Shown: positions 1 to 55,796 of the stretch, piece after piece | Position numbering within the stretch: the first letter of the stretch is position 1 | Layout of the letters: each line of letters starts with the position of its first letter | Virus record (IMG/VR): IMGVR_UViG_2740891848_000001 | Coordinates: 1 to 64,000 of that record | From: a virus | Taxonomy: Duplodnaviria; Caudoviricetes | Reading direction: 5' to 3' (one strand) | Length of the DNA: 64,000 nucleotides | Made by a program: the position numbers and the translations under genes | Notes under the pieces: model-generated | The model's database searches: none | Told to the model about the DNA's origin: nothing | What the model saw: only the letters and a program-made list of their open reading frames with translations

Positions 1-288
1 TCAGAGATCCTCGACCGTCGAGCCTTCGACTTTGCCGTCGATGATGTCCGCGCCGTACTGACTCGCGCTGCGTTTCGCGACGCCGAAATCGGAGAACGTG
101 GACGGCAGCACGAGACGAAATACGCGGCTGGCCTTCGAGCCGCTGATGGCGCCCGGCCGGCAGACGCGTACCGCAACGTCGTAACCTTCGGCATGACGCT
201 TGTGACCGTCGAACTTGTCGAACTGCCGCGAAAACACCAGCGGATGAACTTCGAAGTCCTTATAAAGGGCAGGATAAAGTTGGGCCAT
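1..288 (-). CDS. hypothetical protein, probably host chromosome side of the prophage junction
   Basis: Complete 95-aa ORF with stop at 1-3; lies outside the predicted att site; no recognisable motif. Confidence 0.55.
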   Translation of the reverse strand: MAQLYPALYKDFEVHPLVFSRQFDKFDGHKRHAEGYDVAVRVCRPGAISGSKASRVFRLVLPSTFSDFGVAKRSASQYGADIIDGKVEGSTVEDL

Positions 289-2026: not shown

Positions 2027-2638
2027 TTACCACGGGTGTGTGAGACCGTGCTGTAGCTGTATGTGTGACGCCATCCCAGCGTCCGTTCCCTGGGCGAGAC
2101 CGCTAAAAAATTTCGCTGTTTCTCGAAGTACTTGGCACGTCAGGCGAGTCGTACCTTGCGAGTCTTGATTCCATGAGTACGCCGGCATGGTGAAACCGTG
2201 AGCGAAGCTATGTCGCACCTTGAACACTTGGTTTAGACGTTCACGGACGTGCAGTGCTGAGCCAGTGACGGCCCCTCTCAATCGGACACTCGACCAGTGA
2301 GGCCAAGGATCAAAACCGGTGTACTCCAAGCAAAAGTTTCTGGTGTTTTCGCTATTTGGCGTGTTCAATTTCTCTCTTGCCGCAACCATTCGGTCTCGTG
2401 CTATTGCATGCATTGCATGATAGCTCTGATCTAGTGGTTTTGCGGTAGCGACGTAATAATCCTCGGCCAGTGCTTTGACGTAGGCGTCCCAAGCCGCAGT
2501 TTGTGCCGCCAGCGCCGCGTGCAAAAATACAGATTTGGCAGATTGGTCCGCCTTTTTGTTCATCTTCGCCGCGTGCTCGACAAGGTGCTCAGCCTTATCT
2601 CTCAGCGCAACAAATCGGTTAAAAGCGCTTGACGGCAT
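2027..2638 (-). CDS. HEPN-domain protein (RiboL-PSP-HEPN-like), predicted endoribonuclease
   Basis: Helical 203-aa protein with Rx4H motif RHSFAH; start is 2 nt after the stop of the ParA-like gene. Confidence 0.75.
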   Translation of the reverse strand: MPSSAFNRFVALRDKAEHLVEHAAKMNKKADQSAKSVFLHAALAAQTAAWDAYVKALAEDYYVATAKPLDQSYHAMHAIARDRMVAAREKLNTPNSENTRNFCLEYTGFDPWPHWSSVRLRGAVTGSALHVRERLNQVFKVRHSFAHGFTMPAYSWNQDSQGTTRLTCQVLRETAKFFSGLAQGTDAGMASHIQLQHGLTHPW

Positions 2639-2640
2639 TT

Positions 2641-3678
2641 TTAAAACCGATTCACGAGCTTCGCCAACGCGGTTTTATAGTTTCGAAGCGGCTCGGGATT
2701 TACCTGCACACGCGTCCCATTGATGACCTTGGGGCCGGCCTTCATCCTATGCAGCGGCGTGCCGGTCAGAGCCGAAACGATTGATGCACTATGATAATCC
2801 GGAATGTCCACAAAGCGCTCATCGACCTCCACTTGAGGCGACGCAAACAAGGTTCTATGCTTCTTCGCCAATCTACCGATCGTCTCGCGAATGCCGATGT
2901 TCGCGGCCTCGAATGCTTTACTCGGAACCCCGTCAAACAGCGTGACGCGATTTGAAATAAACGTGTGGAGCTTGGGAAGGTCTATACCCTCCTCCCTCGC
3001 ACGTTTATAAAAACTAAGTCTCGCAAAACTAGCTATATACTCGTCACCTTGGCCATACAACAACGCAATGATATTTTCCATTCCGCGACGGGAACTCTCG
3101 TCGGCTGTAAACGGAACAACTAGGTACTCAGATGCGGCAATCGCCAGTTGCGTATAGACGGCGAAACTTGGATTGCAGTCGAAAAAGAAGACTGTCTCGT
3201 TCTCTCTGGACTCGCGCAACTCATCCTTCAAATCCTTAATCCAGTAGATCACCTTCTTCCACGAGTCGATGGGTACTGAGAGTTGTGAAGTCTGACGCAC
3301 GGCTTCGCCCAGCACCTCGACCAGGTTGTCGCCGCATACAAGAAAGAGATTTTTAGGGATCTTATCGTTCCATTTTGAAGCTTGGACAGCGTATTTAGCT
3401 GAATCACGTATCTGCATAAACGGGGAGTTGAGCCGCTTCTCCAAATACCCCCCGACACTAATCCGCTCCGTTCCCCCGAGCAACTTCCTCAGTGCAGCGC
3501 CGCCCGATAGCTGACCACCAAGTAACGTTTCCGAAACGTTAGCTTGCGGGCAGAGATCGATGACGAACACGTCGATGTCTGGATGCAAGTGAGCGTACTC
3601 ACAGGCACCGATGAAGCAAAGATAGCTTTTCCCAACGCCACCCTTGTTGTTCCAAAAAGCATAAGACGACATTGACAT
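2641..3678 (-). CDS. ParA/MinD-family ATPase
   Basis: Deviant Walker A NNKGGVGKS, IDLCPQANVS and FFDCNPS motifs; start set at ATG 3678 after AAGG. Confidence 0.85.
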   Translation of the reverse strand: MSMSSYAFWNNKGGVGKSYLCFIGACEYAHLHPDIDVFVIDLCPQANVSETLLGGQLSGGAALRKLLGGTERISVGGYLEKRLNSPFMQIRDSAKYAVQASKWNDKIPKNLFLVCGDNLVEVLGEAVRQTSQLSVPIDSWKKVIYWIKDLKDELRESRENETVFFFDCNPSFAVYTQLAIAASEYLVVPFTADESSRRGMENIIALLYGQGDEYIASFARLSFYKRAREEGIDLPKLHTFISNRVTLFDGVPSKAFEAANIGIRETIGRLAKKHRTLFASPQVEVDERFVDIPDYHSASIVSALTGTPLHRMKAGPKVINGTRVQVNPEPLRNYKTALAKLVNRF

Positions 3679-3909
3679 CCTTATCGTTGTAGACGGACAC
3701 CGCCCGGGGCGTGTATCCGCGCGTGAGGGCACATTACTAGAAACAAAAGCTTTGGACAATGACCGCTAGGTGACTCTCATTTGAAGAGTCCGCGGTGACG
3801 GCGACGTCGAACCCGACACTCCGACCACGATCGGCCACATCGAGGGTCGATTGTTGGCGACGCCCGATGCATCCAACATCATCATTGGCCGACGCATTCC
3901 CCCTGAACA

Positions 3910-5085
3910 TCAGTCCTTCTCAATCCAGTTCCCTTGCTCATCGTAATTCTGCGATCCAGAATACCCGAACGCATTCCAAACCATGTCAAACGCCGGTCTC
4001 AACGACTCGAAGGCCGGCACAGTCGGATCGGTCAAAACAATCTCCGGCAGCAAGATGATATTTCGATCTGGTAATCGAGGAAAGAAACCGAAGCCGTCAT
4101 TGGGGACTATGAATCTGTATCCCGTAAGGTCAATGAACGACAGGTACACATAGAAGGGTGCAGAGACATCCATCTGTCCGAGAAGCCCGAGATATCGCTG
4201 AACGGCGTTCCACGCGTGTTGCTCATAATACCTGCTGTGGATGTCCTTCTTCGTCTCACCGCCCGCAAAGACCTCGACGGCCTCGACAATACCGGCGCGA
4301 AATATTTGCGTGTAAGCATGGGACTTTCCCTCGGCATCGGGGTTCGTGTAGTCCACGATACCTTCAAGATTGATCGTCGAGTTTTGAAATTGCGTACGTC
4401 CAAGGGGGTGAAACTGCCTCAGTTGTTCGCTATAGAATCGCATATCTATCTGGTTCCGCCCGGCGAAGGCCGAGAGAGGGATGATATGCACGGCCATCTT
4501 GCATCCGACGTGGATCGGAACCGGGGTGCGGTACTCAAGAATTCGCCCCACGCGATCATTGCGGAAGTCCTCGATTCTCTGGGCAATGGCATCCGACAGG
4601 GCGAATGCCACCCTCAACTCGGCGACGTCCATCTCGAATTTACCCGACGAGTGTCGAGCATAGAATGGACCGCTGTCCCGGACCGTCACGCGGTGAGGAG
4701 CCGCCCAACTCTTAGCCACCCGCACTAGCAGCACTTCCCCGCCTGGCACCGGTATCAGTTTCAACTCCAACTTCGGCAGACGCGGTTCGATCCCGGATCG
4801 GATCATGCTTTCCAGCCGCAATTTCAGCTGGTCGGCGATTACCACCCCGATCCCCGGGATGGCGACCGGAATACCGTCACGGGCATCAATCCCATAAAGA
4901 AGATCTCCACCGTCAGTGTTGGCAAAGGAGGCAACTGCGGCCAAAAATGCGTGCTTAGCCTTATCGCTATTGTCCGGCAAGCCGCGCTTGTACTCCAACG
5001 CCTTACTCTCAGACACGCCGTTGTCGCGCAGTGTCAGAAGGTCGTCGTAGCTGATCAGGTCAAACGGCGTGGGAATCATCGACAC
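3910..5085 (-). CDS. AlbA_2 (Schlafen-like) domain protein
   Basis: N-terminal ESKALEYK...VASFANTDGGDLLYGI and APH...FYARHSSG motifs typical of AlbA_2; uncharacterised C-terminal domain. Confidence 0.85.
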   Translation of the reverse strand: MSMIPTPFDLISYDDLLTLRDNGVSESKALEYKRGLPDNSDKAKHAFLAAVASFANTDGGDLLYGIDARDGIPVAIPGIGVVIADQLKLRLESMIRSGIEPRLPKLELKLIPVPGGEVLLVRVAKSWAAPHRVTVRDSGPFYARHSSGKFEMDVAELRVAFALSDAIAQRIEDFRNDRVGRILEYRTPVPIHVGCKMAVHIIPLSAFAGRNQIDMRFYSEQLRQFHPLGRTQFQNSTINLEGIVDYTNPDAEGKSHAYTQIFRAGIVEAVEVFAGGETKKDIHSRYYEQHAWNAVQRYLGLLGQMDVSAPFYVYLSFIDLTGYRFIVPNDGFGFFPRLPDRNIILLPEIVLTDPTVPAFESLRPAFDMVWNAFGYSGSQNYDEQGNWIEKD

Positions 5086-7904: not shown

Positions 7905-7927
7905 GGTCTATCTGTAGTGGTGGTGAA

Positions 7928-12564: not shown

Positions 12565-13902
12565 TCACACTACTTTGTCTGTTCGGAACCGCACGAACAC
12601 TGGGTTTCGCAGCGAGCCTTCTGAAGTCTTCTCCATATACTCGCATTCGAGAATCCAACCCATCATCTCCTCGCGCTTCGCCCAGAACTCGTGCCGTTCT
12701 GCGTCCGTATAGCCACCGCCTACGTCGACGCGGAAGGGACTACCGTCTTCGAGCGCGCCCTCGATCGTGAAGCCACCGAGCGCATGCTCATACTTGCCCT
12801 TCTTCTTGCCGTTATACGCCGCGACGATGCGGCCCTCGGCCGTGTCGAGAGGCTTGCCCTTCAGCCAGAACGGTGAGCGGTCCCAGACGTACGGCGCGTT
12901 GAGATCCTTCAACATGAAACCCTCGAAGCCCTGCGCCAGCGCGATGTCGAAGAACGTCTTTGTTTCCTCACGGCTGTTGACGATCTGCTTGTAGCTCGGA
13001 CGAAGGCGCCCTGTCCATTCCAGGCCATCCGGCCCCTCCTCTGCACAGATCTTCTCTAGTGCGATGTCGAGCGCGGAGCTGCGCTCGAACTGCGGCCGCA
13101 GACAAACCTGCTGGTCCCACTCCACCATCGTGAGGAAGTCGTATGCATAGAAGCGAAGTTGCGAGCGATCCGCGCCCTCCTTCTTAGCCTTCATAGTGGC
13201 CGAGAAGGAGGGATGCTTCTTCGTCGGGTCCACAACGTGGATCATCGCTTCGCCGTCGAGGACCATTGCTTGGTTACCTACCAGCGCTTCGCGAAGCGCT
13301 TGCATCTCCGCGTCGAACAGGCCGCCGATCCAGTACGTCTGGTCAAGGCCTTCACGGGAGTATCCGACGACCGGCTGGCCGGGGTGGATGAAGACCGTGA
13401 CGCGCTGGCCGTCCATCTTGAACTCGATTTGCGCCGGGAAGGTCGGAGTGTGATCGCCGATCTTCTCGGCCAACATCACGTCGAACACCGGGATCAGCTT
13501 CGGGAACACCTTGTTGATCTCCGTCGCACCGATGCCGACGCGCAGGTTCTTGCGCAGCACGCAGGCCAGGTTCTCCTGGGTCTCCTGGTCGTACTTCATG
13601 AGCACACTCAAGATTGCGGCCTTCGCGGCGTTTCCCGTCAGATGGCGGGTGGAGAGCGACAGCAGCAATTGAATGAACTCCTCGCCTTGGTCCACGTTGT
13701 AGGCTGAGTAATGATCCGGCATATCGAAATCTTTCACACCATAGGTGACGAACGGCGACAGCGCGGCGACCAGCATCTTCTTCGCAAACTCGTCTTCGTT
13801 AGCGCCCAGCTTGGTGAGAGCTTCGATCTTGTCGTTCTTCTTGGTTGTCGCGCGGCATTCAGCCATGAGGCGATTGAAACGGTACATATTGTCTTGATCC
13901 AT
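12565..13902 (-). CDS. ATP-dependent DNA ligase
   Basis: EFKMDGQR adenylation motif, LDGE, EGFMLK and C-terminal OB fold (GGGYTD, LRNPVF); alternative start at 13887. Confidence 0.93.
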   Translation of the reverse strand: MDQDNMYRFNRLMAECRATTKKNDKIEALTKLGANEDEFAKKMLVAALSPFVTYGVKDFDMPDHYSAYNVDQGEEFIQLLLSLSTRHLTGNAAKAAILSVLMKYDQETQENLACVLRKNLRVGIGATEINKVFPKLIPVFDVMLAEKIGDHTPTFPAQIEFKMDGQRVTVFIHPGQPVVGYSREGLDQTYWIGGLFDAEMQALREALVGNQAMVLDGEAMIHVVDPTKKHPSFSATMKAKKEGADRSQLRFYAYDFLTMVEWDQQVCLRPQFERSSALDIALEKICAEEGPDGLEWTGRLRPSYKQIVNSREETKTFFDIALAQGFEGFMLKDLNAPYVWDRSPFWLKGKPLDTAEGRIVAAYNGKKKGKYEHALGGFTIEGALEDGSPFRVDVGGGYTDAERHEFWAKREEMMGWILECEYMEKTSEGSLRNPVFVRFRTDKVV

Positions 13903-13914
13903 TGTGGTGGTGAT

Positions 13915-23643: not shown

Positions 23644-25182
23644 TTGGGGATGATCCCGATGACGATGATTGGCAAAGTGCGGCGGATGTTCCACCGCCAG
23701 AACAAATCGGTACGCGAGATAGCGCGTCTCACAAGCCTGTCGCGCAACACGATTAGCAAATACCTGAGCATGGAGATTCAGGAAGAACCGAAGTATCAGC
23801 GGCGCTCGCAGTCGACCCGGCTGACACCGTTTCACGAGGCGCTGGTGCAGGCGCTCAGCGTGGACGCAAGGCGGCCGAAGAAAGAGCGGCGCACCGCCTG
23901 GATGCTGTTCCAGGAGGTCAAGGCGAACGGCTACGATGGCTGCTATTCGCGGGTGACCGATTTCATCCGGAGCTGGCGGCAAGGCGAAGGCCAAGCGGTT
24001 TCGAAGTCGGCGTTTGTGCCGCTGCAATTCGAGCTGGGCGAAGCGTTCCAGTTTGATTGGTCCGAGGAAGGACTGGTTGTCGGCGGCATTTACCGCAAGC
24101 TGCAGGTGTCGCACATGAAGCTGTGCGCGTCGCGGGCATTCTGGCTCGTGGCCTACCCAAGCCAGGGTCACGAGATGCTGTTCGACGCCCATACGCGCTC
24201 GTTCACGGCCTTCGGCGGGGTGGCCCGTCGTGGCATCTACGACAACATGAAGACGGCGGTCGACAAGGTTCACAAAGGCAAGGGCCGCACAGTCAATCCG
24301 CGTTTCGCAGTGATGTGTTCGCATTACCTGTTCGATCCGGACTTCTGCAATGTCGCCAGTGGCTGGGAGAAAGGGGTCGTCGAGAAGAATGTGCAGGACA
24401 GCCGCCGGCGTATCTGGATCGAAGCGCGCGAGCAGCGATTCGGCAGTTTCGCCGATCTGAATGCATGGCTGGCGAGCCGGTGCCGGTCGTTGTGGGAGCA
24501 GGTGAAGCACCCGGACTATCGGGACCTGAGCGTTGCCGACGTGTTCGAGCAGGAGCGCGCGCATCTGATGCCGATGCCAACACCGTTTGACGGTTACGTT
24601 GAACGCGCGGCCCGGGTGTCGTCTACCTGCCTTGTGGTGATCGGGCGCAACCGCTACTCGGTACCCTGCGAATTTGCAGGCCAGATGCTCAGCACGCGGC
24701 TCTATCCGGGTCGCGTCGTGGTGGTGGGCGATGACGCGGTGGTGGCCGAACATGACCGTCTGGCCGACGAAGGTCTGGTGCGCTACGACTGGCAGCATTA
24801 CATCCCGCTGATCCAGCGCAAGCCCGGCGCCCTGCGCAATGGCGCGCCGTTCCTGGATATGCCCGAGCCGCTGCAGCGCCTGCGTCGGGCGTTACTACGC
24901 GAGCCAGGTGGTGACCGGGTAATGGCTAAGGTTCTGGCGCTGGTACCCGAAAGCGGTCTGGATGCCATAGTGATTGCAGTCGAACTTGCATTGGAGCAGG
25001 CGCCGCCCTCCGGGCGCGTGAGCATCGAGCATGTGGTGAATGTGCTGTCGCGCATGCGCAGCGTGGAGATGCCGCCGAAGATCGATACGGCGCTACAGTT
25101 GACGACACCGCCGCTTGCCGACACATCGCGATACGACGGGCTGCGCCCAGTGCTCCAACAGCCGGAGGCCGGTCATGCTTGA
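23644..25182 (+). CDS. istA: IS21 transposase
   Basis: N-terminal HTH; QFDW, YDNMK and KGVVE DDE motifs. Confidence 0.95.
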
Positions 25183-25975
25183 CCTAATCGTCGAACTCAA
25201 GCAGTTGCGGCTGCATGGCATGGCTGCCGGTTGGGCCGAACTACTCGAACAGGGTAACGTCGAGGTGGCGTCTTCGCAGTGGTTGCTTGAACGGCTACTG
25301 CAGGCCGAGAGTACTGATCGTGCCGTGCGTTCGGTCAGCCACCAGATGAACGCGGCGAAGTTCCCGGTGCATCGCGATCTGGCCGGCTTCGAGTTCGACG
25401 GTTCGCCGGTCGATCGCCAGCTCGTCATGCAACTAGCCGGCATGACGTTCACCGAGAGTGCACACAACCTGGTTCTGGTCGGCGGCCCCGGCTCGGGCAA
25501 AACGCATCTGGCGACCGCCATTGGCGTATCGGGGATCATGCACCACGGCAAGCGAGTGCGCTTCTACTCGACCGTGGATCTGGCCAACGCGCTGGAGCAG
25601 GAGAAGGCGCAGGGTCGCGCCGGGCGGATCGCGGCGAGCCTGCTGCGTCTTGACCTGGTCATTCTGGACGAACTTGGGTATCTGCCCTTCAGCCAGGCCG
25701 GCGGGGCACTGCTGTTCCATCTGTTGAGCCGCCTGTACGAGCACACGAGCGTTGCGGTCACGACGAATCTGGACTTCGCCGAATGGTCGAGCGTGTTCGG
25801 CGACGCGAAGATGACCACAGCGTTGTTGGACCGGCTAACGCACCACTGCCACATCGTGGAGACCGGCAACGAGAGTCACCGTTTCCGGCATAGCAGCGCC
25901 AGTGCAAAGAAGCGCATCCGGTCGCGTGAAGCGGCGCGAAAAGCCGACGCCGCAAGTGCTTCTGAGCTCGAATGA
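25175..25975 (+). CDS. istB: IS21 helper ATPase
   Basis: Walker A GGPGSGKT, Walker B ILDELG, AxxDRLxH motif; overlaps istA stop. Confidence 0.95.
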
Positions 25976-27335: not shown

Positions 27336-27373
27336 GATGTGGTGGTGATGATTTGTTAAGGACGAACGCATAG

Positions 27374-27468: not shown

Positions 27469-27696
27469 TTAGGCGCGAGCCATGTGCTCGCTTGCTTGGT
27501 GCTTCGCTGCCTGTTCATCCGCCGCAACTTGAGCAGCGAGACGGCGTTCGCGGTTCTTGAGAGCCACGACTCGCGCTTCCCAGTGCTCCTTCGAGGCCTC
27601 CGCATCGAGCCGTTCGAGCTGGCACTGCTTCAGTTGCGCCTTCGCCTCGCTTTGAGGGTTCTTAATAGGAAGAAAACTGGCCAGATAGTTCAGCAT
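27469..27696 (-). CDS. phage hypothetical coiled-coil protein
   Basis: ORF with AAGGA before ATG 27696. Confidence 0.55.
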   Translation of the reverse strand: MLNYLASFLPIKNPQSEAKAQLKQCQLERLDAEASKEHWEARVVALKNRERRLAAQVAADEQAAKHQASEHMARA

Positions 27697-27768
27697 GATT
27701 GATCCTTTCATCTTGTGGTGGTGGTTGGTACTACGGGTGAAACTGACTTACACAGTGAAGCGTGGGGA

Positions 27769-28534: not shown

Positions 28535-28563
28535 ATACTAGATCTCTTAAATGGCCACGTCAA
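28535..28563 (-). promoter_or_regulatory. sigma70 promoter of the toxin-antitoxin operon
   Basis: TTGACG-17 nt-TAGTAT on the minus strand, with AAAAGATC/AAAAGACC operator-like repeats nearby. Confidence 0.7.
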
Positions 28564-29249
28564 CTTTGATAAACCAGCTTGTCGTCGCCCAGATACAGGT
28601 CGCGCGACCCGGCGTTCTTGCTGGCCTCGGTCAGCGCGTCGCGGATCTCCTTCGGCAGCTCGCGGCGATCCCAGTATCCGCAGCCGTGGCCGGCGCGCGT
28701 GAGCCAGAAGTCGTGACCGGCGCGCTCGGCCGTGTAGCCGTTGATCTGCATCGCGGCGTGCAGCTGCGGTTCGGCGAAGTCGCAGAAGTCCTTGCAGTCC
28801 TCACGGAACTGGGCTTTCGTCTGCTCGGCCAGCTCGTACTGGTCCAGCTCGACGCTCTTCTCCCCGCCCGTCTCCTTATCGTGGATGGTGTCCGTGCTCG
28901 ACCAGAGCGCGGCTTCCTCGTAGCCCTGGACGAAGTCCTCGAACCACAGCTCGCGAGGGGTCTCGACGATGTCCACATTCGGGTACTCACCGCGGACGAT
29001 TTCCAAGACCTCCCAGCGATCCTTGGCACGCAGGAAGAACTCCACGTCGCCCTCGGATTCAACAGCCCGCCACAGCGGCTCTCCTGCGCCCCAATACGCG
29101 CCTCCCGCGTCGTAGTCGCCGTCGACGAACGGTAGATGCTGGACGACCAGCTTGATCGGTGCGTCCTGGTCGTCGGCATGCGTGTCGCGGCGACCCATCG
29201 GTGCTCCGCGTGCGCTGCCCACTTCGGCCAGTTTCATGCTAGTCGTCAT
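28560..29249 (-). CDS. phage early hypothetical protein
   Basis: Conserved-looking GAYWG and GHDFWLTRAGHGCGYWDR motifs. Confidence 0.7.
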   Translation of the reverse strand: MTTSMKLAEVGSARGAPMGRRDTHADDQDAPIKLVVQHLPFVDGDYDAGGAYWGAGEPLWRAVESEGDVEFFLRAKDRWEVLEIVRGEYPNVDIVETPRELWFEDFVQGYEEAALWSSTDTIHDKETGGEKSVELDQYELAEQTKAQFREDCKDFCDFAEPQLHAAMQINGYTAERAGHDFWLTRAGHGCGYWDRRELPKEIRDALTEASKNAGSRDLYLGDDKLVYQS

Positions 29250-29568
29250 GTCGTGCCTCCCGGATCGAGTTCGACTCGGCGAGATCTCCCCAGCAGCCAA
29301 CCGTCATCGACAGGCCATGGAAGAGGATCGTGGTCGCGTAGGTATCGCCGGCATTGCAGTAGTACACGTCACAGCCTGTGCGGCGGTTCACGCCCAGGAA
29401 CTCGACGCCGTGTGTTTCAATCAGGCGGTCGATCTGGCTACGGGCTTCGCTGCGCCGTTGAACGGTCTTCCAAACCTCGCGCACTTTGGCAGCGATCTCG
29501 GGCGTCACGTCCTTGATTTCTTGCAGCCGCTTCGACGAAGCAGCGCGACGTTCAGAGAGCTGTACCAT
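29239..29568 (-). CDS. phage early hypothetical protein
   Basis: 109 aa; YCNAGDTYATTI motif. Confidence 0.65.
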   Translation of the reverse strand: MVQLSERRAASSKRLQEIKDVTPEIAAKVREVWKTVQRRSEARSQIDRLIETHGVEFLGVNRRTGCDVYYCNAGDTYATTILFHGLSMTVGCWGDLAESNSIREARHDD

Positions 29569-29858: not shown

Positions 29859-29903
29859 GATTTACTCTGTGGTGGTGAGTGAATAACGTGCAGCTCTGCA
29901 CTT

Positions 29904-30885: not shown

Positions 30886-31206
30886 TCACTCCTCCTTCAA
30901 GATAAAGCCGCAGTAGGCGGTGTCGCCGACGACAATGGCAGGGTGTGCATAGCCGTCTTCTTTGCTGGTGGTTGCTTCGAGCGTCTGATCGGACCAACGC
31001 TTCCAGTCCGTCAACTGCTGGGATATCTCGTACGACTCCTGGTCGACGAACTCAACGGTGACCGTGTGTTTCAGCTCGAAGTGGTGGATGCCGTTGATCT
31101 CGAACGACTTGCCTGCTGCGGCCTCGCTGATCTTCTCTTCTTCATCAGGCGACAGCAGCCCGGTCGGATACGGGAACGGGTAGCCGTTGGTCAGGATCAG
31201 GCGCAT
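30886..31206 (-). CDS. phage early hypothetical protein
   Basis: Start reassigned to ATG 31206 (MRLILTNGY). Confidence 0.55.
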   Translation of the reverse strand: MRLILTNGYPFPYPTGLLSPDEEEKISEAAAGKSFEINGIHHFELKHTVTVEFVDQESYEISQQLTDWKRWSDQTLEATTSKEDGYAHPAIVVGDTAYCGFILKEE

Positions 31207-31634
31207 GCTTCCACCTTCGTTGCGATGTAGAACGGCGTTGTCAGATCGTTCGGCGCAACGAAGGCAGTCGGGATCGCACCCGACAGATACAGCTGCCCCT
31301 TCTTCGGGCAACGCATCGGCAGCTCGTCCCATTGCGCTATGCCACCGCCTTCTGCGTGTACAGGCCTCGTGCTGATCGCTGGCCCGTTCTCGGTTTTGCG
31401 CGCGTGGCAGGCGTCAAGCGACTTCTGATACGCGGCCTGATCGAAATACTGCACACCCGTCAAGTGCGCCAGCTGGTGGACGATCATCTGCACCGCGGGA
31501 TCGCAGTTGATCTCGTCGGTCCCCTTGCCTTCATGCCGGCACTGCGCAATTGCGTTAACCAGCGCGGTGGAGATTGCAATCGGGTTGCACGCGCCTTGCT
31601 GAATCGCGGCGGCTTCGCGGAATCGGTTGTACAT
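31197..31634 (-). CDS. phage early hypothetical protein
   Basis: Start at ATG 31634 (MYNRFREA), 2 nt after the upstream stop. Confidence 0.6.
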   Translation of the reverse strand: MYNRFREAAAIQQGACNPIAISTALVNAIAQCRHEGKGTDEINCDPAVQMIVHQLAHLTGVQYFDQAAYQKSLDACHARKTENGPAISTRPVHAEGGGIAQWDELPMRCPKKGQLYLSGAIPTAFVAPNDLTTPFYIATKVEACA

Positions 31635-35751: not shown

Positions 35752-36014
35752 GCAGGCACCGCCTCAGTGATTGCGTATGTGTAGCGCGCCGAGCCGAGCT
35801 TGCCGTCCATTGTGATGACGATGCCGCACTGCGCGGAGAGACGGTTGATGAAGTCTTCGAAGCTGTGGAAGTTCCGCGTATCGACGTTCTCGACCATCAT
35901 CTCTTCGAGCACGACATGAATCGCGGGGCCAGCGTAGGAAACTCTCTTCTTCATGTCAGCGAGCATGTCGCCGAAGAAGTGGAAGTATCCGATCGGGTTC
36001 GTGGTGGTGGACAC
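35748..36014 (-). CDS. phage early hypothetical protein
   Basis: GTG start preceded by AAGGATCAAAACTC. Confidence 0.55.
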   Translation of the reverse strand: MSTTTNPIGYFHFFGDMLADMKKRVSYAGPAIHVVLEEMMVENVDTRNFHSFEDFINRLSAQCGIVITMDGKLGSARYTYAITEAVPA

Positions 36015-36049
36015 GAGTTTTGATCCTTGTAGAACGTGCAGTTCTGCAC

Positions 36050-38171: not shown

Positions 38172-38594
38172 CTACAGCACAGCGAGACCGACGATCACTA
38201 CTGCGCAGAGGGCCAGCCCTGCGAAGATGATGCGGTCCCACCTGGCTTGCGCCTTCTGCTCGGCCGGCGTCAGTTGCACGACGACGCGGTGCGAGACGGA
38301 GTAGGAGCGCAGGCGTCCTTCAAGCGTCGGATCGAAGAGGCCCGGAGCCGGAGCTGGAGCAGGAGCGCGGAGTGCGCGGACTGCTTCAGGAGCTGGAGCC
38401 GGAGCACTGCCTTTAGCTGAGGCAGAGAACGCTACGTCGATCTGCTCGATGGATGCGAGCCATTGAGTCTTCTCGAAATATACGGTCGCACAGGGCGCAA
38501 CAGCTGCCAGTGGCGTTGGAGCTGTAGCGCGTTTCGTGTGACTGCGCACATTCGAGGAGTGCAAGGATAGCGGAAAAACGTTGGAAGTTTTCAT
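38172..38594 (-). CDS. hypothetical protein with AP repeats and C-terminal membrane anchor
   Basis: APAPAP runs; hydrophobic end IIFAGLALCAVVIVGLAVL. Confidence 0.6.
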   Translation of the reverse strand: MKTSNVFPLSLHSSNVRSHTKRATAPTPLAAVAPCATVYFEKTQWLASIEQIDVAFSASAKGSAPAPAPEAVRALRAPAPAPAPGLFDPTLEGRLRSYSVSHRVVVQLTPAEQKAQARWDRIIFAGLALCAVVIVGLAVL

Positions 38595-38605: not shown

Positions 38606-39091
38606 AACTATCAGATAGTTGTGAGATTCGACCGCGCGGGCCAGCGCGCTGGGGTCAAAAACGGTGTGCGAATAGACTTTCGATTTTTACTTCTTAAGGA
38701 CACTTATCTCTATCTGATAATTGACGTCCTCACTCGTGGATCGACTTTGAAAGTCTATTCAACACCCCCTTCTCTTTTCTTGGGGGAAAGGGAAGGAAGA
38801 AAAAGAAGAAGAAGTAGGAAGCTAAGAGATTGATTTGAAGGGCGAAAAACGCCGCTTTCAGAACTATCTGATAGTTTGCGCACGGCGCGATGTTTTGCCC
38901 GTGGTCTGACACAACGAGCTTGTGGTCTCCAAGTGGGTTATCACTGGGGCTGGAGCGCAACGGCGACTTATCCACAACTGCGGAGCCTCCCGGTTACGCG
39001 TTGGACACTCAACCCATAGGTGGAACAACGCTACCCCTCCACCGCACGCGACATCCACACGCTTCACTCGCCGCGCCAACTATCAGATAGT
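38606..39091. repeat. cluster of AACTATC-W-GATAGTT palindromes
   Basis: Sites at 38606, 38862, 39078, variant at 38710; related sites at 12549 and 44849. Confidence 0.75.
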
Positions 39092-40797: not shown

Positions 40798-41361
40798 TTG
40801 GCCAAAGAGAAGTTCACTAGGGAACAGTTCACTGTCGAGCTTGCGAAAGAGTGGTTTTCGTATGATACGAACGCAGGACTTGTTATCCGCATCAAGAATC
40901 CGACGCGTGGGCCTAAGACGGCCGGCACACGCGCTGGAGCGCTCCACAAGCCCAGTGGGATGCGCCAGGTCATCTTCCAAGGCGTGAGCGTCTACGAGCA
41001 GCAGCTGGTCTGGGCGCTAGTCACCGGCGAGTGGCCCGCAGGCAAGCTAAAGTTTAAGGACGGAGATCCGTTAAACACCCGTTTTGACAATCTATGCGCG
41101 GCGGCGAACACCGCGGAGAGTTACGAAGCATTACATTCTGGCACTGAGTTGGGGCAGACACCTCTCTCGGGAGTAGTTCCTACCTCAAGCGGGAAATTTA
41201 AGGCTCAAATTTTTCGCGAGTGGATGATCTATCTAGGAACGTTTGAGACACCGGAGTTAGCTAGTGAAGCATACTTGCGGGCCAAGTCAGTCCTTCACTC
41301 TCCCCTGAACAGGGCCAAGTCGACACACGAACTCTTGGAAGAGCTATCAGAGTCTCCTTAA
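40798..41361 (+). CDS. HNH-AP2 homing-endonuclease-like protein with degenerate HNH active site
   Basis: W.LVTGEWP...DGDPLN.RFDNL HNH-like frame and SGV...GKFKAQI...IYLGTFET.E.A.EAY AP2 domain; AGGAG RBS, TTG start. Confidence 0.75.
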   Translation: MAKEKFTREQFTVELAKEWFSYDTNAGLVIRIKNPTRGPKTAGTRAGALHKPSGMRQVIFQGVSVYEQQLVWALVTGEWPAGKLKFKDGDPLNTRFDNLCAAANTAESYEALHSGTELGQTPLSGVVPTSSGKFKAQIFREWMIYLGTFETPELASEAYLRAKSVLHSPLNRAKSTHELLEELSESP

Positions 41362-41416
41362 GAGTTCCTGATGCACCTTAGTATCATCTTGAATCACAAA
41401 TTTGCAACTTGAAAGC

Positions 41417-41445
41417 TTGCAAAGGACTTTGGAGATGTTTATAGT
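41417..41445 (+). promoter_or_regulatory. sigma70 promoter of the putative sRNA
   Basis: TTGCAA (41417-41422), 17-nt spacer, TATAGT (41440-41445). Confidence 0.75.
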
Positions 41446-41450
41446 TCGGT

Positions 41451-41615
41451 CTCAAGTGCTGCGTGATCTGTGGTGGTGAGCGCAGCAGCTGAGACGCCAG
41501 TCTCAGTCATGACTTAGGGGTGGCCAGCTCCGAAGTCGACCGTCCTAGACGGTAGTTTTGATCCATTGTAGAAGCTCAAAAAGCCCATCCGATTAGCTAT
41601 CGAATGGGCTTTTTC
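41451..41615 (+). ncRNA. putative multi-hairpin phage small RNA complementary to start-associated motifs
   Basis: No ORF; promoter upstream and terminator downstream; hairpins 41457-41487, 41489-41506, 41511-41537, 41539-41553 and a weak one at 41554-41577; loops match repeated mRNA-leader motifs. Confidence 0.7.
41578..41615. terminator. bidirectional intrinsic terminator
   Basis: A6-GCCCAT-C-CGAT/ATCG-A-ATGGGC-T5. Confidence 0.85.
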
Positions 41616-41708
41616 CTTTTCAACCTACGAATTGTCATTCAAGTGTGCGAACTGCTGTGTTTACATACAGTAGTCAGTAGTCGTTCTCTTTGTTGAACAC
41701 TTGAACGT

Positions 41709-44228
41709 CTAGGCGGTGACGGGCTGCTCTCCAGAATGGTCCTTCGTCGTACTCGACGCACTCCCCGCTCCCACAAGTGTGAGGTTCTTGTACTCGACGG
41801 ACTGCCCGCCCATCGGAGTGTGTTCGATCGTAAGTTTGAATCCGAACTCGGTAGCCAATTCCCTCATCTTTGCTCTGAACTGAGTCGATCCAACAGGCCG
41901 CGCAGACCCCGGCCCGACGCAGAAGGACCAATATGCCTGATAGAGCTTCGTTTCCGTGACGGATGTGGGGGTCGAAGTCTTCGACCCAGCGGACTCCGCT
42001 TCTTGGAGAGCGTGAATCCGCACCTTCCCGCTCTCCATGAGAAAAAAACGTACGCTGTTGTTCAGGTTCGCTACCTCACGCATGATTTGCGTATGCGAAG
42101 CGGGAATCGTGAACTCGTTTAGCGTCTTCAACCGTCCCATCGACTGTACCGCCCACGCAACGATGGCCTCACGCTCCTCAACCACGATCGCGTCACCGAG
42201 ATCGAGCCGGCGCTCGGATGCTTTCACTGGCCGATTGAACTGGAACACGAGCCAGCGACGATTGAAACCCTCTGACGTGTCTTCCGTACGTGGGTAGTGG
42301 TTCGATGCAAACCAGTGCGTGCAGATAGGATTGAAGCGAAAAATCTGACCTCCTTTCATCTGGCCCGACATCTCAGCCCCGTCGATGATGTCCTTGAACT
42401 TCTGACCATCGACAGTCTTCTTTTCCGACAGCTCGCCAGCCACGTTGATGATCTTCTCAAACATCTGCGTGGGCAAAAACTTGTCACTCCACTCGTTAGG
42501 CGGCACCGCCGAACGAGCGGAGTCTGGTACGAGAGCTTGTGCGATCTTCAAAAGCTGCGATTTCCCAGACTTAGGGGCGCCTTGGAGCAAAACCGCACGT
42601 TGATAACGCGGCCCCAAACCAAAAAGCGTGACTGCCAGCGCTTCCTGAATAGCATCCACTTTTTGGAGATAATCGTCGTCCTCACCCCAGCTTTTGTGAA
42701 GAAAGTCGAAAAACATCGACGATTTACCTGCCGCCTCAGGCAAATAACGGAACGGCAACGTATATGTCATGCCGTAACCGAGGTCGTGGGGCAGCAATTT
42801 GAGGTCTTCCGTGAGAAAACCATTGGCGAAATTGACGCCCTTCACGTCGACCGTCTTAATCCCTTGGGTCATGAGCATTTTCATGACCTGAAAGACGCCG
42901 CGAATGTCGTTGAATTTCTTGCACGCCGCTAGATGGCCATAGTCCGAGCTGATCTTCGACATAATGTACGTGTCGTCCACCTTCTCCCAGTGTGAGCCTG
43001 CCCACTTCCACACGAAGCCGTTGTGAGAGCGAACTTGGAACAGCTGCTCCAGATCCTTGATCACCGCGCGAGCGATCTCAGACTGGTCCTGGCCCTTGAT
43101 GTCACCCATGCGCAACTCTTTGATGCGCGCTTTCAAACTCGAGACCTTCACGCCGAGACCCGAGGTCATCGCGATGAACTCAAGCAGGCGGTCCTCTTCG
43201 AGCTTATTCAGCCCGGTGGTCGTGGCCACCTTCTGCAATGCCTTGTCCACCGACGAAGAACGACCCGGCGATTCCTTCGGAAAACGCTCGAACTCGTCGA
43301 TCAGAAACTGCTTCAGATCCTCAAACGACCACTCCTCCTGGTCCTTCGTAATCTCCAAACCCCAGGCTTCCTTCTCCTCGCCAGTCATGCCCTCGTCCCA
43401 GCCGGTCGGCAGCACCTTCTGCTTTTCGAACACGTCCCGTTGCAGGAACTTGATCATGTTGCGGACGTGCTTGTCTACGTCGATCGGGTCGCCCGCAACG
43501 TTCTCGACGAAGTCGGCCGCGTACGCCTGAAGCATGCCGATCGCTTCCTTCAGGCTACGGTCACCGCGAATCACCGCGTACGCGAAGAGGCCCGCACGCT
43601 CGGTCAGCGACGTGTCGCGCGAGCCGGCCGACGCATAGTCAATCACGCGCGTCCAACCGGAGTGCGACAGCTCGACGCCGGCCTCGGTGAGCGCGGCCCG
43701 CAGAAGCGCCTCAATGTTCTCGTCGAGAGGCACCAGATTCTTGTGAACGTCGACGAGGTCACAGCTCGCCTGGTAAGGGAGTTGCGTATCCGGGTGAATC
43801 GACGGAGGCAGCACCGACTGCGTGCGTGCGGAAAGCATTTCACAGATTGTCTCGCCGCTCGTGTTCTTGATCCGGAAAGTCTTCACGCCAGAGTAGCGGA
43901 ACGCGAGCATCGCGCCCTTCTTGCCGATACGGCGCCACGGAGAAGGCGGCAGCAGTTGCTCGATCACGTTCATCAACCGGATGTCTTCCGTGTCGATGTC
44001 CATCATGACGATGCCAGACTGCGGGCCGAGCACGATACCGATGTTCGAATCACGGCACTGCTCGATCCAACTGGCTTGTTGCTCCGGTTCCACCGGATGA
44101 TCGAAGTAACGCGACCAGTCGTTCGGGATCGGCTTCTTTTCGCGCGGATAAAGCGGGATGACCGGGAGACCCGCCGCGTAGTAGCGCGGCGCGGTCTGGG
44201 CAAAGATGGGTTGGCGTTCGGTCTTCAT
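41709..44228 (-). CDS. bifunctional primase-polymerase / D5-like SF3 helicase
   Basis: N-terminal prim-pol (VIPL.P..K.P, NIGIVLG, MDID); C-terminal GAPKSGKS Walker A and RRWLVFQF. Confidence 0.9.
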   Translation of the reverse strand: MKTERQPIFAQTAPRYYAAGLPVIPLYPREKKPIPNDWSRYFDHPVEPEQQASWIEQCRDSNIGIVLGPQSGIVMMDIDTEDIRLMNVIEQLLPPSPWRRIGKKGAMLAFRYSGVKTFRIKNTSGETICEMLSARTQSVLPPSIHPDTQLPYQASCDLVDVHKNLVPLDENIEALLRAALTEAGVELSHSGWTRVIDYASAGSRDTSLTERAGLFAYAVIRGDRSLKEAIGMLQAYAADFVENVAGDPIDVDKHVRNMIKFLQRDVFEKQKVLPTGWDEGMTGEEKEAWGLEITKDQEEWSFEDLKQFLIDEFERFPKESPGRSSSVDKALQKVATTTGLNKLEEDRLLEFIAMTSGLGVKVSSLKARIKELRMGDIKGQDQSEIARAVIKDLEQLFQVRSHNGFVWKWAGSHWEKVDDTYIMSKISSDYGHLAACKKFNDIRGVFQVMKMLMTQGIKTVDVKGVNFANGFLTEDLKLLPHDLGYGMTYTLPFRYLPEAAGKSSMFFDFLHKSWGEDDDYLQKVDAIQEALAVTLFGLGPRYQRAVLLQGAPKSGKSQLLKIAQALVPDSARSAVPPNEWSDKFLPTQMFEKIINVAGELSEKKTVDGQKFKDIIDGAEMSGQMKGGQIFRFNPICTHWFASNHYPRTEDTSEGFNRRWLVFQFNRPVKASERRLDLGDAIVVEEREAIVAWAVQSMGRLKTLNEFTIPASHTQIMREVANLNNSVRFFLMESGKVRIHALQEAESAGSKTSTPTSVTETKLYQAYWSFCVGPGSARPVGSTQFRAKMRELATEFGFKLTIEHTPMGGQSVEYKNLTLVGAGSASSTTKDHSGEQPVTA

Positions 44229-44782
44229 GCGTTCTCTTCTGTGGTGGTGTCAGTCGCGTCATCGTCAGCTGCTGCTGAACGGGCCAGGACGCTCCTAAGT
44301 CGATCCATAACGTCCGTACGCTGGTCAGGCGATAGGACTTCTTCCATGATCGTGAGTACGGTGTCCTGGAAGTCTTTGATCTGCTTGACTCCAAGCGCGC
44401 GCTCACGAGCATTAACAAGGCGTTCCAACAAACTGGTCGCGGTGCGGAAATACGCCATCCGCTCCGTTTGATCTGATGCCGCTATGCCCTTGCCGTAGTT
44501 CTTCAGCTCCGTAAAGACGCTGTGAAGGTCACTAGCAAGCGTGCTGTCAATTTCATCCTCGGAAACTGGGGTTGATGGAGGCTTTTGATCCTCTGTCGGC
44601 TTGTTCATCACTTGCCAACCCTGTCGGAATGAGACGACTTCATTGACGAACTGCTTCGTCTTCGGGTCGTACGGACATTCTGTGTCATTGAGGTATTCGC
44701 GGTCCTCGATAGTCAGCGTGACAGCAGTGTGCAACGCCCATCCAACGAGGGCATCAATGTAGGGGTAGTGGCGTTCGCTCAT
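44225..44782 (-). CDS. hypothetical protein, possible terminase small subunit
   Basis: Helical protein adjacent but divergent to the large terminase; ATG 44782 preceded by ATGGATCAATC. Confidence 0.4.
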   Translation of the reverse strand: MSERHYPYIDALVGWALHTAVTLTIEDREYLNDTECPYDPKTKQFVNEVVSFRQGWQVMNKPTEDQKPPSTPVSEDEIDSTLASDLHSVFTELKNYGKGIAASDQTERMAYFRTATSLLERLVNARERALGVKQIKDFQDTVLTIMEEVLSPDQRTDVMDRLRSVLARSAAADDDATDTTTEENA

Positions 44783-44956
44783 GATTGATCCATTGAAGAA
44801 GTGCGAGAATATTCGGTTCCGCACATAAGGAAAATGAAAATCAGCGGCACTATCAGATAAAAACGCACAACTATCGTCTGATTGCGAACATACATTTTTT
44901 CTTTGTGTTGTGTCGAAGCCTCACTGAGAATAGCGCCTGATCCAAAGGTCTCCTCA

Positions 44957-49941: not shown

Positions 49942-50059
49942 AGCTGCCGGCCCTGTCCACCACCAGGGCTGTCAGTGACCGAAACGTAAGAAGAAGCTGC
50001 TGGACCCGTCCACCACCGGGGCCAGCAGTGGTTGAACCCAACACCACAATGGATCAAAC

Positions 50060-51320: not shown

Positions 51321-51653
51321 ATGCAAAAAATCATCGCCCACACCACCGGCAAGTTTCAGCTGATCGACCAGCTGAGCGGCGACCTGATCTCCGCGCACCG
51401 CCCCTCCGTGATCTCGAAGACCCCCTTCGTGACTGCACGACTTGGTCTCGACCAAGTCGTGATCGTCGCGGAAGTAAAGCCCGAGGCGACGGATGAAGAG
51501 TTCGCCAAGCACTGGAAGGAGGCCAACGGCGACATGGATCTCGCGGTCGAATCGTTCCTGTCGAAGTTCGGCCTCGACGCAGACGGCGAGCCGGAAACCC
51601 CGCGTACGACCGCGCGCGGCGGCAGGAAGCAAACCTCCGCTGCCACCGAATAA
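51321..51653 (+). CDS. virion morphogenesis hypothetical protein
   Basis: 110 aa after capsid; preceded by ACCACCACA. Confidence 0.65.
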   Translation: MQKIIAHTTGKFQLIDQLSGDLISAHRPSVISKTPFVTARLGLDQVVIVAEVKPEATDEEFAKHWKEANGDMDLAVESFLSKFGLDADGEPETPRTTARGGRKQTSAATE

Positions 51654-55340: not shown

Positions 55341-55358
55341 CATTGGATCACCACCACC

Positions 55359-55796
55359 ATGACCACCACCATTCAAAAACGCCAAGCGCCTGACCCGCGC
55401 TTCAAAGTCAAGGTCAACGGCGAAGAGCGTACACTTTTCATGTCGTTCGGCTTGCTCAACGAGATCTGTCGCGCGATCGGCGGTCTCGAAGCCGCCATCC
55501 AGATCCCGGTCGACAACGAACTGCGCGACTATAGCCTGCTGGCTGTGCTCTCGACGCGTGACGCAGAAGGGCACGTCGCGGAAGGCGGCGCTATCAACCT
55601 GCGCACTCTCGACATCGCAATCGACGATGTCGAAGAACTGCTGGCGTGGATCACCGATCACGTCACTGATTTTTTTCTGCGGACGATGGAGAGAGTCGTC
55701 ACGGGTCAGAGAAAGAACGAAGAGCGGTTCCTGGCTCTCGCGAAAAACAAAAAGCCGGAAGACTCACAGCCTACACCGACTGGTTCCGCGGCCTAA
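55359..55796 (+). CDS. tail assembly chaperone (gpG-like)
   Basis: Between tail tube and tape measure; contains slippery runs. Confidence 0.75.
   Translation: MTTTIQKRQAPDPRFKVKVNGEERTLFMSFGLLNEICRAIGGLEAAIQIPVDNELRDYSLLAVLSTRDAEGHVAEGGAINLRTLDIAIDDVEELLAWITDHVTDFFLRTMERVVTGQRKNEERFLALAKNKKPEDSQPTPTGSAA

Follow-up and report, generated by a model that had tools for sequence, protein, structure and literature searches.

A putative antisense RNA of a temperate phage, complementary to motifs at the starts of about a quarter of the phage's own genes

The c4 RNAs of the phages P1 and P7 and the CI RNA of P4 are small and structured. Two exposed segments of these RNAs pair in trans with two sites in messenger RNA (mRNA), one of them covering the ribosome-binding site (RBS), and they give immunity. 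We here describe a predicted RNA gene that invites comparison with them. It occupies positions 41417-41615 of a 64,000-nucleotide (nt) stretch of phage DNA, the window of this analysis, which is included in an IMG/VR provirus record of 81.8 kb (IMGVR_UViG_2740891848_000001). Its product, of about 165 nt, would be a trans-acting, base-pairing antisense small RNA (sRNA) that occludes open initiation regions devoid of a Shine-Dalgarno (SD) sequence and represses translation phage-wide. We have moderate confidence in this reading.

The target sequences of the sRNA GcvB in yifK and dppA contain ACA-type translation enhancers, and GcvB represses by antagonising them; elements of this type can support initiation without an SD sequence (PMC3879156). 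The start-associated sequence (SAS) of cluster K mycobacteriophages is a short asymmetric motif found a few nt before the starts of 11-19 genes per genome. Its conservation extends over several subclusters, and the host genome is almost devoid of it (PMC3203893). Pope et al. did not decide whether SAS is bound by an RNA or by a protein of the phage (PMC3203893), and the question was still open in 2025 (PMC12699233). Among other phage sRNAs, VpdS of VP882 and PreS of lambda bind or depend on Hfq, Hfq aids the maturation of 24B_1 of Phi24B, and VpdS and 24B_1 also affect phage gene expression (PMC12197685). The section consulted of this 2025 review of phage sRNAs contains nothing comparable to the present RNA.

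The gene has the architecture of an sRNA gene, i.e., its own promoter and a Rho-independent terminator with a U tail; both are predicted elements, and both are conserved in 12 homologues (see below). The sigma70-type promoter (41417-41445, plus strand, as all parts of the gene) was found by a consensus scan and consists of a -35 element TTGCAA (41417-22), a spacer of 17 nt and a -10 element TATAGT (41440-45). The sRNA itself is predicted to extend from 41451 to 41615, its 5' end being deduced from the -10 element and its 3' end from the U-run of the terminator. Open reading frames (ORFs) of at least 30 amino acids (aa) are absent from 41362-41603. Promoter and ORF-free stretch were thus found as a preliminary description of this DNA had them. 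The minimum free energy (MFE) of the fold of 41451-41615 is -68.8 kcal/mol (z = -5.05), and none of 200 shuffled sequences was as stable.

Four consecutive hairpins are followed by a strong terminator. H1 (41457-41487) has a stem of 8 bp; its loop (41465-41480) is the 16-mer GAUCUGUGGUGGUGAG, in DNA letters GATCTGTGGTGGTGAG. This G/U-rich loop, here called seed A, is antisense to (U)CACCACCAC(A). H2 (41488-41507) differs in sequence and length between phages, which suggests that it is a spacer. H3 (41511-41537) exposes the loop (G)GUGGCCAGC at 41519-41528, and H4 (41539-41553) is followed by seed B, GUUUUGAUCC(AUUGU) at 41555-41569. Seed B is single-stranded or weakly paired, is unpaired in the centroid fold, and is antisense to GGAUCAAAAC. 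The bidirectional terminator (41578-41614) consists of an interrupted stem of 15 pairs and a trailing U5; it matches its own reverse complement and is common to the RNA gene and the convergent primase operon. The preliminary description had proposed a series of hairpins plus a terminator; H1 to H4 and the terminator appear in the MFE fold, as does a weak H5, which is lost in the centroid structure. A helix that closes the 5' end on the UUUUGA segment occurs in some MFE folds, is not conserved and was discarded.

Homologues were sought via the Prim-Pol/DUF5906 primase, the gene of which (41709-44228, minus strand) converges with the RNA gene. The search with the primase protein in IMG/VR yielded 16 loci, 11 of which have a homologue of the RNA; a pattern scan added one more (L035/L009), so that the homologue is present on 12 contigs. 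It always lies at the same place downstream of the primase gene and in the same orientation. The carriers, all of them phages of about 80 kb, are present as proviruses or as genomes with terminal repeats, and one of them is a prophage of Burkholderia paludis MSh1. In the promoters of the 12 homologues TTG of the -35 and TAnAnT of the -10 element are invariant, the spacer being variable.

The alignment of these homologues shows loops that are fixed and stems that are free to change. The fold is the same in all of them. The 16-mer of H1 is identical in 12 of 12, and so is the H3 loop GUGGCCAGC (DNA GTGGCCAGC), preceded by G in 11 of them and by A in L009. Seed B is conserved as GUUU(U/C)GAUC(C/A). 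H2 is a perfect hairpin in every lineage despite unrelated sequences. RNAalifold detected compensatory double changes in 17 of 34 pairs, a number reached by none of 500 shuffles: three pairs in H1, where all cells are paired, four of the five in H4, seven in the terminator; the inner stem of H3 covaries as well. In the alignment 94.6% of the paired cells can indeed pair, compared to 37-53% after a shift of the 3' partners by 1-3 columns. The covariation of the stems, which had been named as a check of the proposal, is thus evident. Judged by these comparisons, the element is well supported as a genuine conserved, structured non-coding RNA gene that is absent from Rfam.

Rfam 15, searched with the whole window at gathering thresholds, gave no match, models such as the C4 antisense RNA, GcvB, tmRNA and 6S included, which agrees with the earlier opinion that the RNA does not belong to a described family. 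A permissive search of 41300-41750 produced chance-level hits only (E >= 1.4, 13-19 bits against cut-offs of 49-70). ARAGORN saw neither a tRNA nor a tmRNA at 41.4-41.6 kb; its sole call in the window is the tRNA-Gly-like sequence at 31259-31352 (see below). Blastn of the locus against 50,697 phage records found no match. The covariance model R1 detected no homologue in the entire genomes of three related phages, Achromobacter phage JWF, 2-1 and Lumi, nor in their primase regions with filters switched off. Among 151 sampled genomes of the family of B. paludis, the RNA occurs in B. paludis only and in none of the other 150. Of the hits of exact-pattern scans, 9 of 20 in viral contigs, 2 of 3 in genome contigs and each of the 33 in metagenome contigs proved to be chance matches within unrelated sequence. 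The RNA family is rare. A run look-up showed that the sequencing runs containing DNA of the element are metagenomes of soil, rhizosphere and bog.

What, then, do the exposed segments recognize? In the present genome, reverse complements of 10-mers of the RNA cluster for just two of its parts, the H1 loop and the segment that follows H4. Two motifs emerge, motif A, (U)CACCACCAC(A), and motif B, GGAUC(A/G)A(AAC). The word CACCACCA occurs 31 times in this genome, about 2.5 copies being expected; nearly all copies are on the sense strand, and some 20 of them lie 2-19 nt upstream of the starts of long ORFs. In seven RNA-bearing phages, the genes of which were called roughly with an ORF picker of our own based on codon usage, CACCACC is enriched 15.6-fold at -40..+40 of starts as compared to gene interiors (134 matches, p ~1e-107), and its complement GGTGGTG is not enriched around starts. 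GGATC[AG]A is enriched 2.9-fold around starts (p ~1e-9) with a peak at -20..-1; again, the complement is not. The distance from the end of motif B to the start codon is 2-6 nt, as for an SD sequence. The spacing of motif A is broad and bimodal; it either abuts the start (-1..2) or lies 9-16 nt upstream.

Between 20 and 29 genes per genome (22-31%) carry motif A or B. In the present phage, 27 of 90 called genes have one of them within 32 nt upstream of a candidate start. The claim of more than 20 starts is thereby borne out; that one sRNA should govern most of this genome is too strong a statement. The motif-bearing genes here comprise those of the integrase, ArdA, MazG, DNA ligase, a small ORF before the family-A polymerase, the primase, an HNH protein, the putative capsid and tail proteins, structural as well as non-structural ones, and many of the sites are intercistronic.

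Three antisense relations had originally been proposed. Those of the H1 loop and of the 3' segment stand; that of the H3 loop with CUGGCC does not. CTGGCCA is enriched a mere 1.6-fold (p = 0.025), CTGGCC not at all, and the word corresponds to a common Leu-Ala codon pair. Duplex energies calculated with the loops only revealed a modest enrichment for the seeds A and B and none for the H3 loop. The duplex energy of the whole RNA was dismissed as uninformative, since a random window scored -45.8 kcal/mol. A reversed seed is useless as a control for seed A because GUGGUGGUG is palindromic as text, i.e., reads the same backwards.

The individual sites vary in arrangement. The longest exact match to seed A, 14 nt, is CUCACCACCACAGA (29866-29879, minus strand), 9 nt before the ATG of a 96-aa ORF. 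A 13-nt exact match to seed B, ACAAUGGAUCAAA (50046-50058, plus strand), ends 1 nt before the ATG (50060) of a 395-aa ORF, the putative major capsid gene. Both matches are exactly as first described. The 395-aa ORF has no match in Pfam, and the name 'capsid' is owed to its previous label and to gene order. A match of 19 out of 20 nt with one gap had previously been seen at 36016-36034. It is not a single gapped duplex but consists of 11 nt that match seed B exactly (36016-36026) and a separate CCACCACCAC site; around a GTG start, GGAUCAAAACU is followed by CCACCACCAC (36001-36026, minus strand). Motifs A and B also stand together in CACCACCACAAUGGAUCAA at the start of the DNA ligase gene (13893-13912, minus strand), and B and A are fused in GGAUCACCACCACC, directly before the ATG of a 145-aa ORF (55345-55360, plus strand). 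CACCACCAC is found 12 nt before the ATG (44228) of the primase gene (44241-44249, minus strand), where it is kept in six of the seven RNA-bearing phages and where JWF has GGAG; 12 nt before the ATG (7904) of the MazG gene (7917-7925, minus strand), the JWF orthologue of which has GAGG; and 4 nt before an in-frame ATG of the anti-restriction gene ardA (27339-27347, minus strand).

Two peculiarities of motif A leaders may be mentioned here. In the L009 genome the leader of the orthologue of the gene at 27469-27711 contains about 16 CAC repeats (48 nt; G003:C1:69464-69511, minus strand). Motif A has thus been expanded to an array, to which more than one copy of the RNA could bind. Further, two late-region leaders beyond the window (G000 68480-68530 and 72470-72520) and the orthologous leaders share a conserved word, TAAAATT(T)CGG, about 20 nt upstream of motif A. 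It looks like a -10 element, which would place motif A inside a very short 5' untranslated region.

The motifs track the RNA. CACCACCAC has 3-6 matches in JWF, 2-1 and Lumi, which do not have the RNA, versus 14-30 in RNA-bearing phages; in JWF and Lumi motif B is not enriched at starts, and the enrichment of CACCACC is weak. In orthologous leaders, the motif is retained across RNA-bearing phages. The 8.6-Mb genome of B. paludis has 30 sites of the type CACCACCAC-N0-15-ATG, and 13 of these are inside its 80-kb prophage (p ~4e-19); the other 17 compare with 10 in a backwards control. Because the sites concentrate in the prophage, motif A is not a translation signal of the host.

The most telling observation concerns seed B. 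It reads GUUUCGAUCC in phage G006 and GUUUUGAUC in the six other phages. Close to starts, GGATCGA occurs six times in G006, in four cases as GGATCGAAAC, as opposed to a single GGATCAA; the corresponding numbers for the remaining six phages combined are 5 GGATCGA and 33 GGATCAA (Fisher p = 3.5e-4 versus G006). The switch is also seen in orthologous leaders, that of the capsid gene included. The co-conservation of RNA segments and leader motifs, once listed as a check of the proposal, thus takes the form of a co-variation. The base 5' of GGAUC, inspected by eye, does not co-vary, so that an extended pairing of seed B gains nothing from it. Seed A is invariant and therefore offers no such test. 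A change in one gene that is mirrored in many dispersed leaders is what base pairing in trans predicts, and it is hard to fit to a protein site or to chance. The marks of a trans-acting sRNA, a conserved and accessible seed, remote targets and the co-evolution of both, are found here. As far as sequence comparison can tell, the pairing of the RNA with the two start-associated motifs is strongly supported.

Of course, the complementarity could be incidental. The motifs would then be protein-binding or DNA-level signals such as operators or elements of replication or packaging, and the hairpin region would be the 3' untranslated end of the upstream HNH-type endonuclease gene (40798-41361, plus strand; Pfam HNH_3) with a shared terminator, or else an RNA that sequesters a protein. 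The convergent HNH and primase genes need a terminator anyway, as had been conceded from the outset, TTGAGA-like direct repeats round the promoter (see below) could be protein sites, and the transcript is a predicted one. Yet the motifs are strictly confined to the sense strand, with no enrichment of their complements; a promoter with invariant TTG and TAnAnT lies between the HNH stop codon and H1; the covarying stems imply that the element works as a folded single strand; the change of seed B in G006 is mirrored in at least six separate leaders; and the loops differ from each other, unlike those of a sponge with a repeated protein-binding motif. We therefore regard an incidental complementarity as very improbable.

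If the pairing is real, its consequence has to be deduced from the leaders. SD-like words are present in 23% of the motif leaders versus 51% of the other leaders (p ~3e-11). In JWF, inspection by eye revealed an SD-like 4-mer (GGAG, GAGG or AGGA) at the place of the motif in about 7 of 13 leaders, among them those of the primase, MazG, the capsid, thyX, the gene at 51321 and a gene of the endolysin region beyond the window. Motif A is fully unpaired in the local MFE structure at 51 of 114 sites, as compared to 54 of 625 controls, and resides in a hairpin loop at 36 of 114 sites, as compared to 28 of 625. This accessibility, which is due in part to the C/A-rich composition, suits a loop-loop first contact with the H1 loop. 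Opening of the region -20..+15 costs about 9 kcal/mol in motif leaders versus about 13 kcal/mol in SD-bearing or other leaders (p ~1e-12). The motif leaders thus are intrinsically open, and there is no inhibitory structure for the RNA to undo. The binding sites of the RNA are within the footprint of the 30S subunit. We infer repression as the direction of the effect because the leaders are open, because the sites are in the 30S footprint, and because GcvB sets the precedent.

The proposed mechanism would be as follows. The RNA would be transcribed from its own sigma70-type promoter and end at the intrinsic terminator. Its scaffold of four hairpins would display seed A in the H1 loop and seed B in the 3' single strand. 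Seed A would pair with motif A, up to about 20 nt upstream of starts and often in a hairpin loop, seed B with motif B in the SD position of the phage mRNAs. The SD-less motif leaders are probably translated via an open, C/A-rich initiation region of the enhancer type. The bound RNA would cover the landing site of the 30S subunit and switch translation off, possibly with subsequent decay of the mRNA. Its role would be that of a phage-wide post-transcriptional silencer with a threshold, which keeps leaky transcripts of the prophage quiet. It would also block a superinfecting relative and be titrated out upon the surge of lytic transcription. Expression of the RNA, its dependence on Hfq and its part in lysogeny or immunity are to be read in the same conditional sense.

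The same pairing could have the opposite sign. The RNA would then be a phage-specific activator or adaptor of translation for SD-less leaders, either by a trans helix that replaces the SD/anti-SD helix or by another part, e.g., the H3 loop, that contacts the ribosome; an orthogonal initiation code would result. The motifs do occupy the place of the SD sequence, 77% of the motif leaders have no SD-like word, and about 7 of the 13 JWF leaders inspected have such a word at the corresponding position. The targets include essential genes, the spacing of motif B is SD-like, and the invariant H3 loop, which has no mRNA target, could serve the other contact. The leader motifs even resemble the 3' tail of 16S rRNA, GGAUCACCUCC, as exemplified by GGAUCACCACCACC at 55345-60. 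The broad, bimodal spacing of motif A, however, is unlike that of an SD helix, and leaders that are already open do not call for an activator. By eye, the alignment contains no conserved accessible segment of the GGAGG type. To our knowledge, all well-studied sRNAs that pair inside -20..+5 repress, and repression is also the GcvB precedent (PMC3879156). An activating RNA appears unlikely to us. Still somewhat more doubtful is a private initiation code in the strict sense, in which the SD sequences of about a quarter of the genes, those of the primase, ligase and putative capsid included, have been replaced by words that the host ribosome alone cannot read, the sRNA being a diffusible surrogate of the anti-SD sequence and the H3 loop a possible contact to the ribosome. 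If this were true, the phage would possess a natural orthogonal system of translation initiation.

Alternatively, the pairing is real and initiation is not what it primarily affects. The RNA might mask loading sites of Rho or entry sites of RNase E and thereby control elongation or stability across operons, or it might guide the processing of polycistronic mRNA at gene boundaries. CACCACCAC is C-rich, G-poor and unstructured, a composition typical of rut sites, and many motif sites are intercistronic; also, P1 c4 and P4 CI act in the end through premature termination. The positions of the sites, however, follow start codons and neither the beginnings of operons nor 3' ends, motif B overlaps a GGA core at SD distance, and effects on Rho or decay could be a mere consequence of blocked translation. 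Such effects may accompany repression or activation alike. As the primary function of the RNA, we consider them improbable.

Several points weigh against translational repression as set out above. The co-variation test comprises seed B only, a single lineage (G006) and rough gene calls. The loss of the SD sequence in essential genes (primase, ligase, putative capsid) could equally mean that the pair of motif and RNA is required for translation. The conserved H3 loop, for which no partner was identified, leaves part of the RNA unexplained. Late and early genes are both targeted, which poorly fits a simple early shut-off. C/A-rich words are partly unpaired by virtue of their composition alone. 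Finally, the strength of the promoter and the ends of the transcript are predictions.

The surroundings of the RNA gene deserve some comments. The HNH gene is always linked to the RNA gene. In the present phage and its closest relative the catalytic histidines of its product are gone (QQ for HH, KF for HR); in five other RNA-bearing phages HH..HRD..NN is kept. The idea that the upstream HNH-AP2 protein is a dedicated partner in repression was abandoned, since the catalytic histidines are intact in those five. Direct repeats resembling (C/G)TTGAG(A/T), two to five copies, flank and overlap the sRNA promoter (41360-41445; the same region in L005, L008, L013 and L015); a regulator of the RNA gene may bind there. 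JWF, too, has an HNH gene in the corresponding position, and a stretch of about 100 nt downstream of it contains two hairpins and a terminator (L042 6110-6290, minus strand); this stretch may be an unrelated small RNA or merely a 3' untranslated region.

A protein of 246 aa (28560-29300, minus strand) is the sole one encoded in all six RNA-bearing phages that were compared and absent from JWF and Lumi. It has no Pfam family, belongs to PHROG 1915 (function unknown) and yielded no informative Atlas match. It is a candidate partner of the RNA or a lysogeny factor.

Some other features of the prophage are listed for completeness. An IS21-family insertion (23644-25975, plus strand) interrupts the minus-strand early region, with IstA, which has the C-terminal domain of the Mu transposase, at 23644-25182 and IstB at 25115-25975 (E = 4.5e-87). 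Having no counterpart in six related phages, it is, by this comparison, a recent acquisition of this prophage copy. Beside the integrase gene (2027-5085, minus strand) there are cargo genes for a HEPN RiboL-PSP protein (2027-2638), a ParA-like AAA_31 ATPase (2641-3759) and a Schlafen/AlbA_2 protein (3910-5085). The last one, the only one of the three covered by the comparison, has no counterpart in the relatives. The cargo may be a prophage-borne defence island. A palindrome-like word, TATCTGATAG / CTATCAGATA, is seen at 38610-38620 and 44835-44850 and in relatives. It recurs in the divergent region between the primase and terminase operons and before the gene at 38594 and is among the most over-represented 8-mers in several relatives; this distribution suggests an operator. 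The tRNA-Gly(GCC) call of ARAGORN (31259-31352, minus strand, early region) has the unusual length of 94 nt and overlaps the ORF 30886-31332.

How does the RNA compare with the systems mentioned at the beginning? With c4 and CI it shares the use of two exposed segments. c4 and CI measure about 77-79 nt, arise by processing of the very transcript under their control and regulate one or two loci; the present RNA is about 165 nt long, has its own promoter and 20-29 dispersed targets per genome. Its gene and the primase operon are convergent, and the targets are scattered across 80 kb on both strands, an arrangement that differs from processing out of a controlled transcript. No Rfam model matches it, and it is therefore not a member of the C4 family.

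The resemblance to GcvB is a functional one. Both are multi-target RNAs with an intrinsic terminator, and both direct an exposed G/U-rich seed against C/A-rich elements at or just upstream of the RBS of many mRNAs (PMC3879156). They are related neither in sequence nor by Rfam. The present RNA is a phage product with the genome of that phage as its regulon; its target word is a fixed 9-10-mer that replaces the SD sequence and does not merely stand beside it; and it has a second, unrelated seed covering a motif in the SD position. VpdS, PreS and 24B_1 are likewise phage-encoded and act after transcription (PMC12197685). Their best-defined targets are a few host or phage genes, and for none of them has a dedicated motif in a quarter of the phage's initiation regions been described.

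SAS, finally, is also a short motif of one orientation before start codons. Its 13-nt consensus GGGATAGGAGCCC, found 3-7 nt before starts, differs in sequence from the motifs described here, the placement being analogous. SAS contains a strong SD sequence and is confined to non-structural genes; the present motifs have none, are also found before structural genes, and come with a complementary RNA that co-varies with them. Each of the regulatory RNAs hitherto described from phages acts on one locus or a few. Here, the regulon would reside in the initiation regions of 20-29 genes of the phage itself, and a dedicated motif displaces the SD sequence in the targeted genes. If the proposed repression is true, we are dealing with a natural, threshold-dependent, genome-wide post-transcriptional control in a temperate phage. 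The RNA is a concrete candidate for the kind of trans factor that reads start-associated motifs, the question that had been posed by the SAS of the mycobacteriophages.

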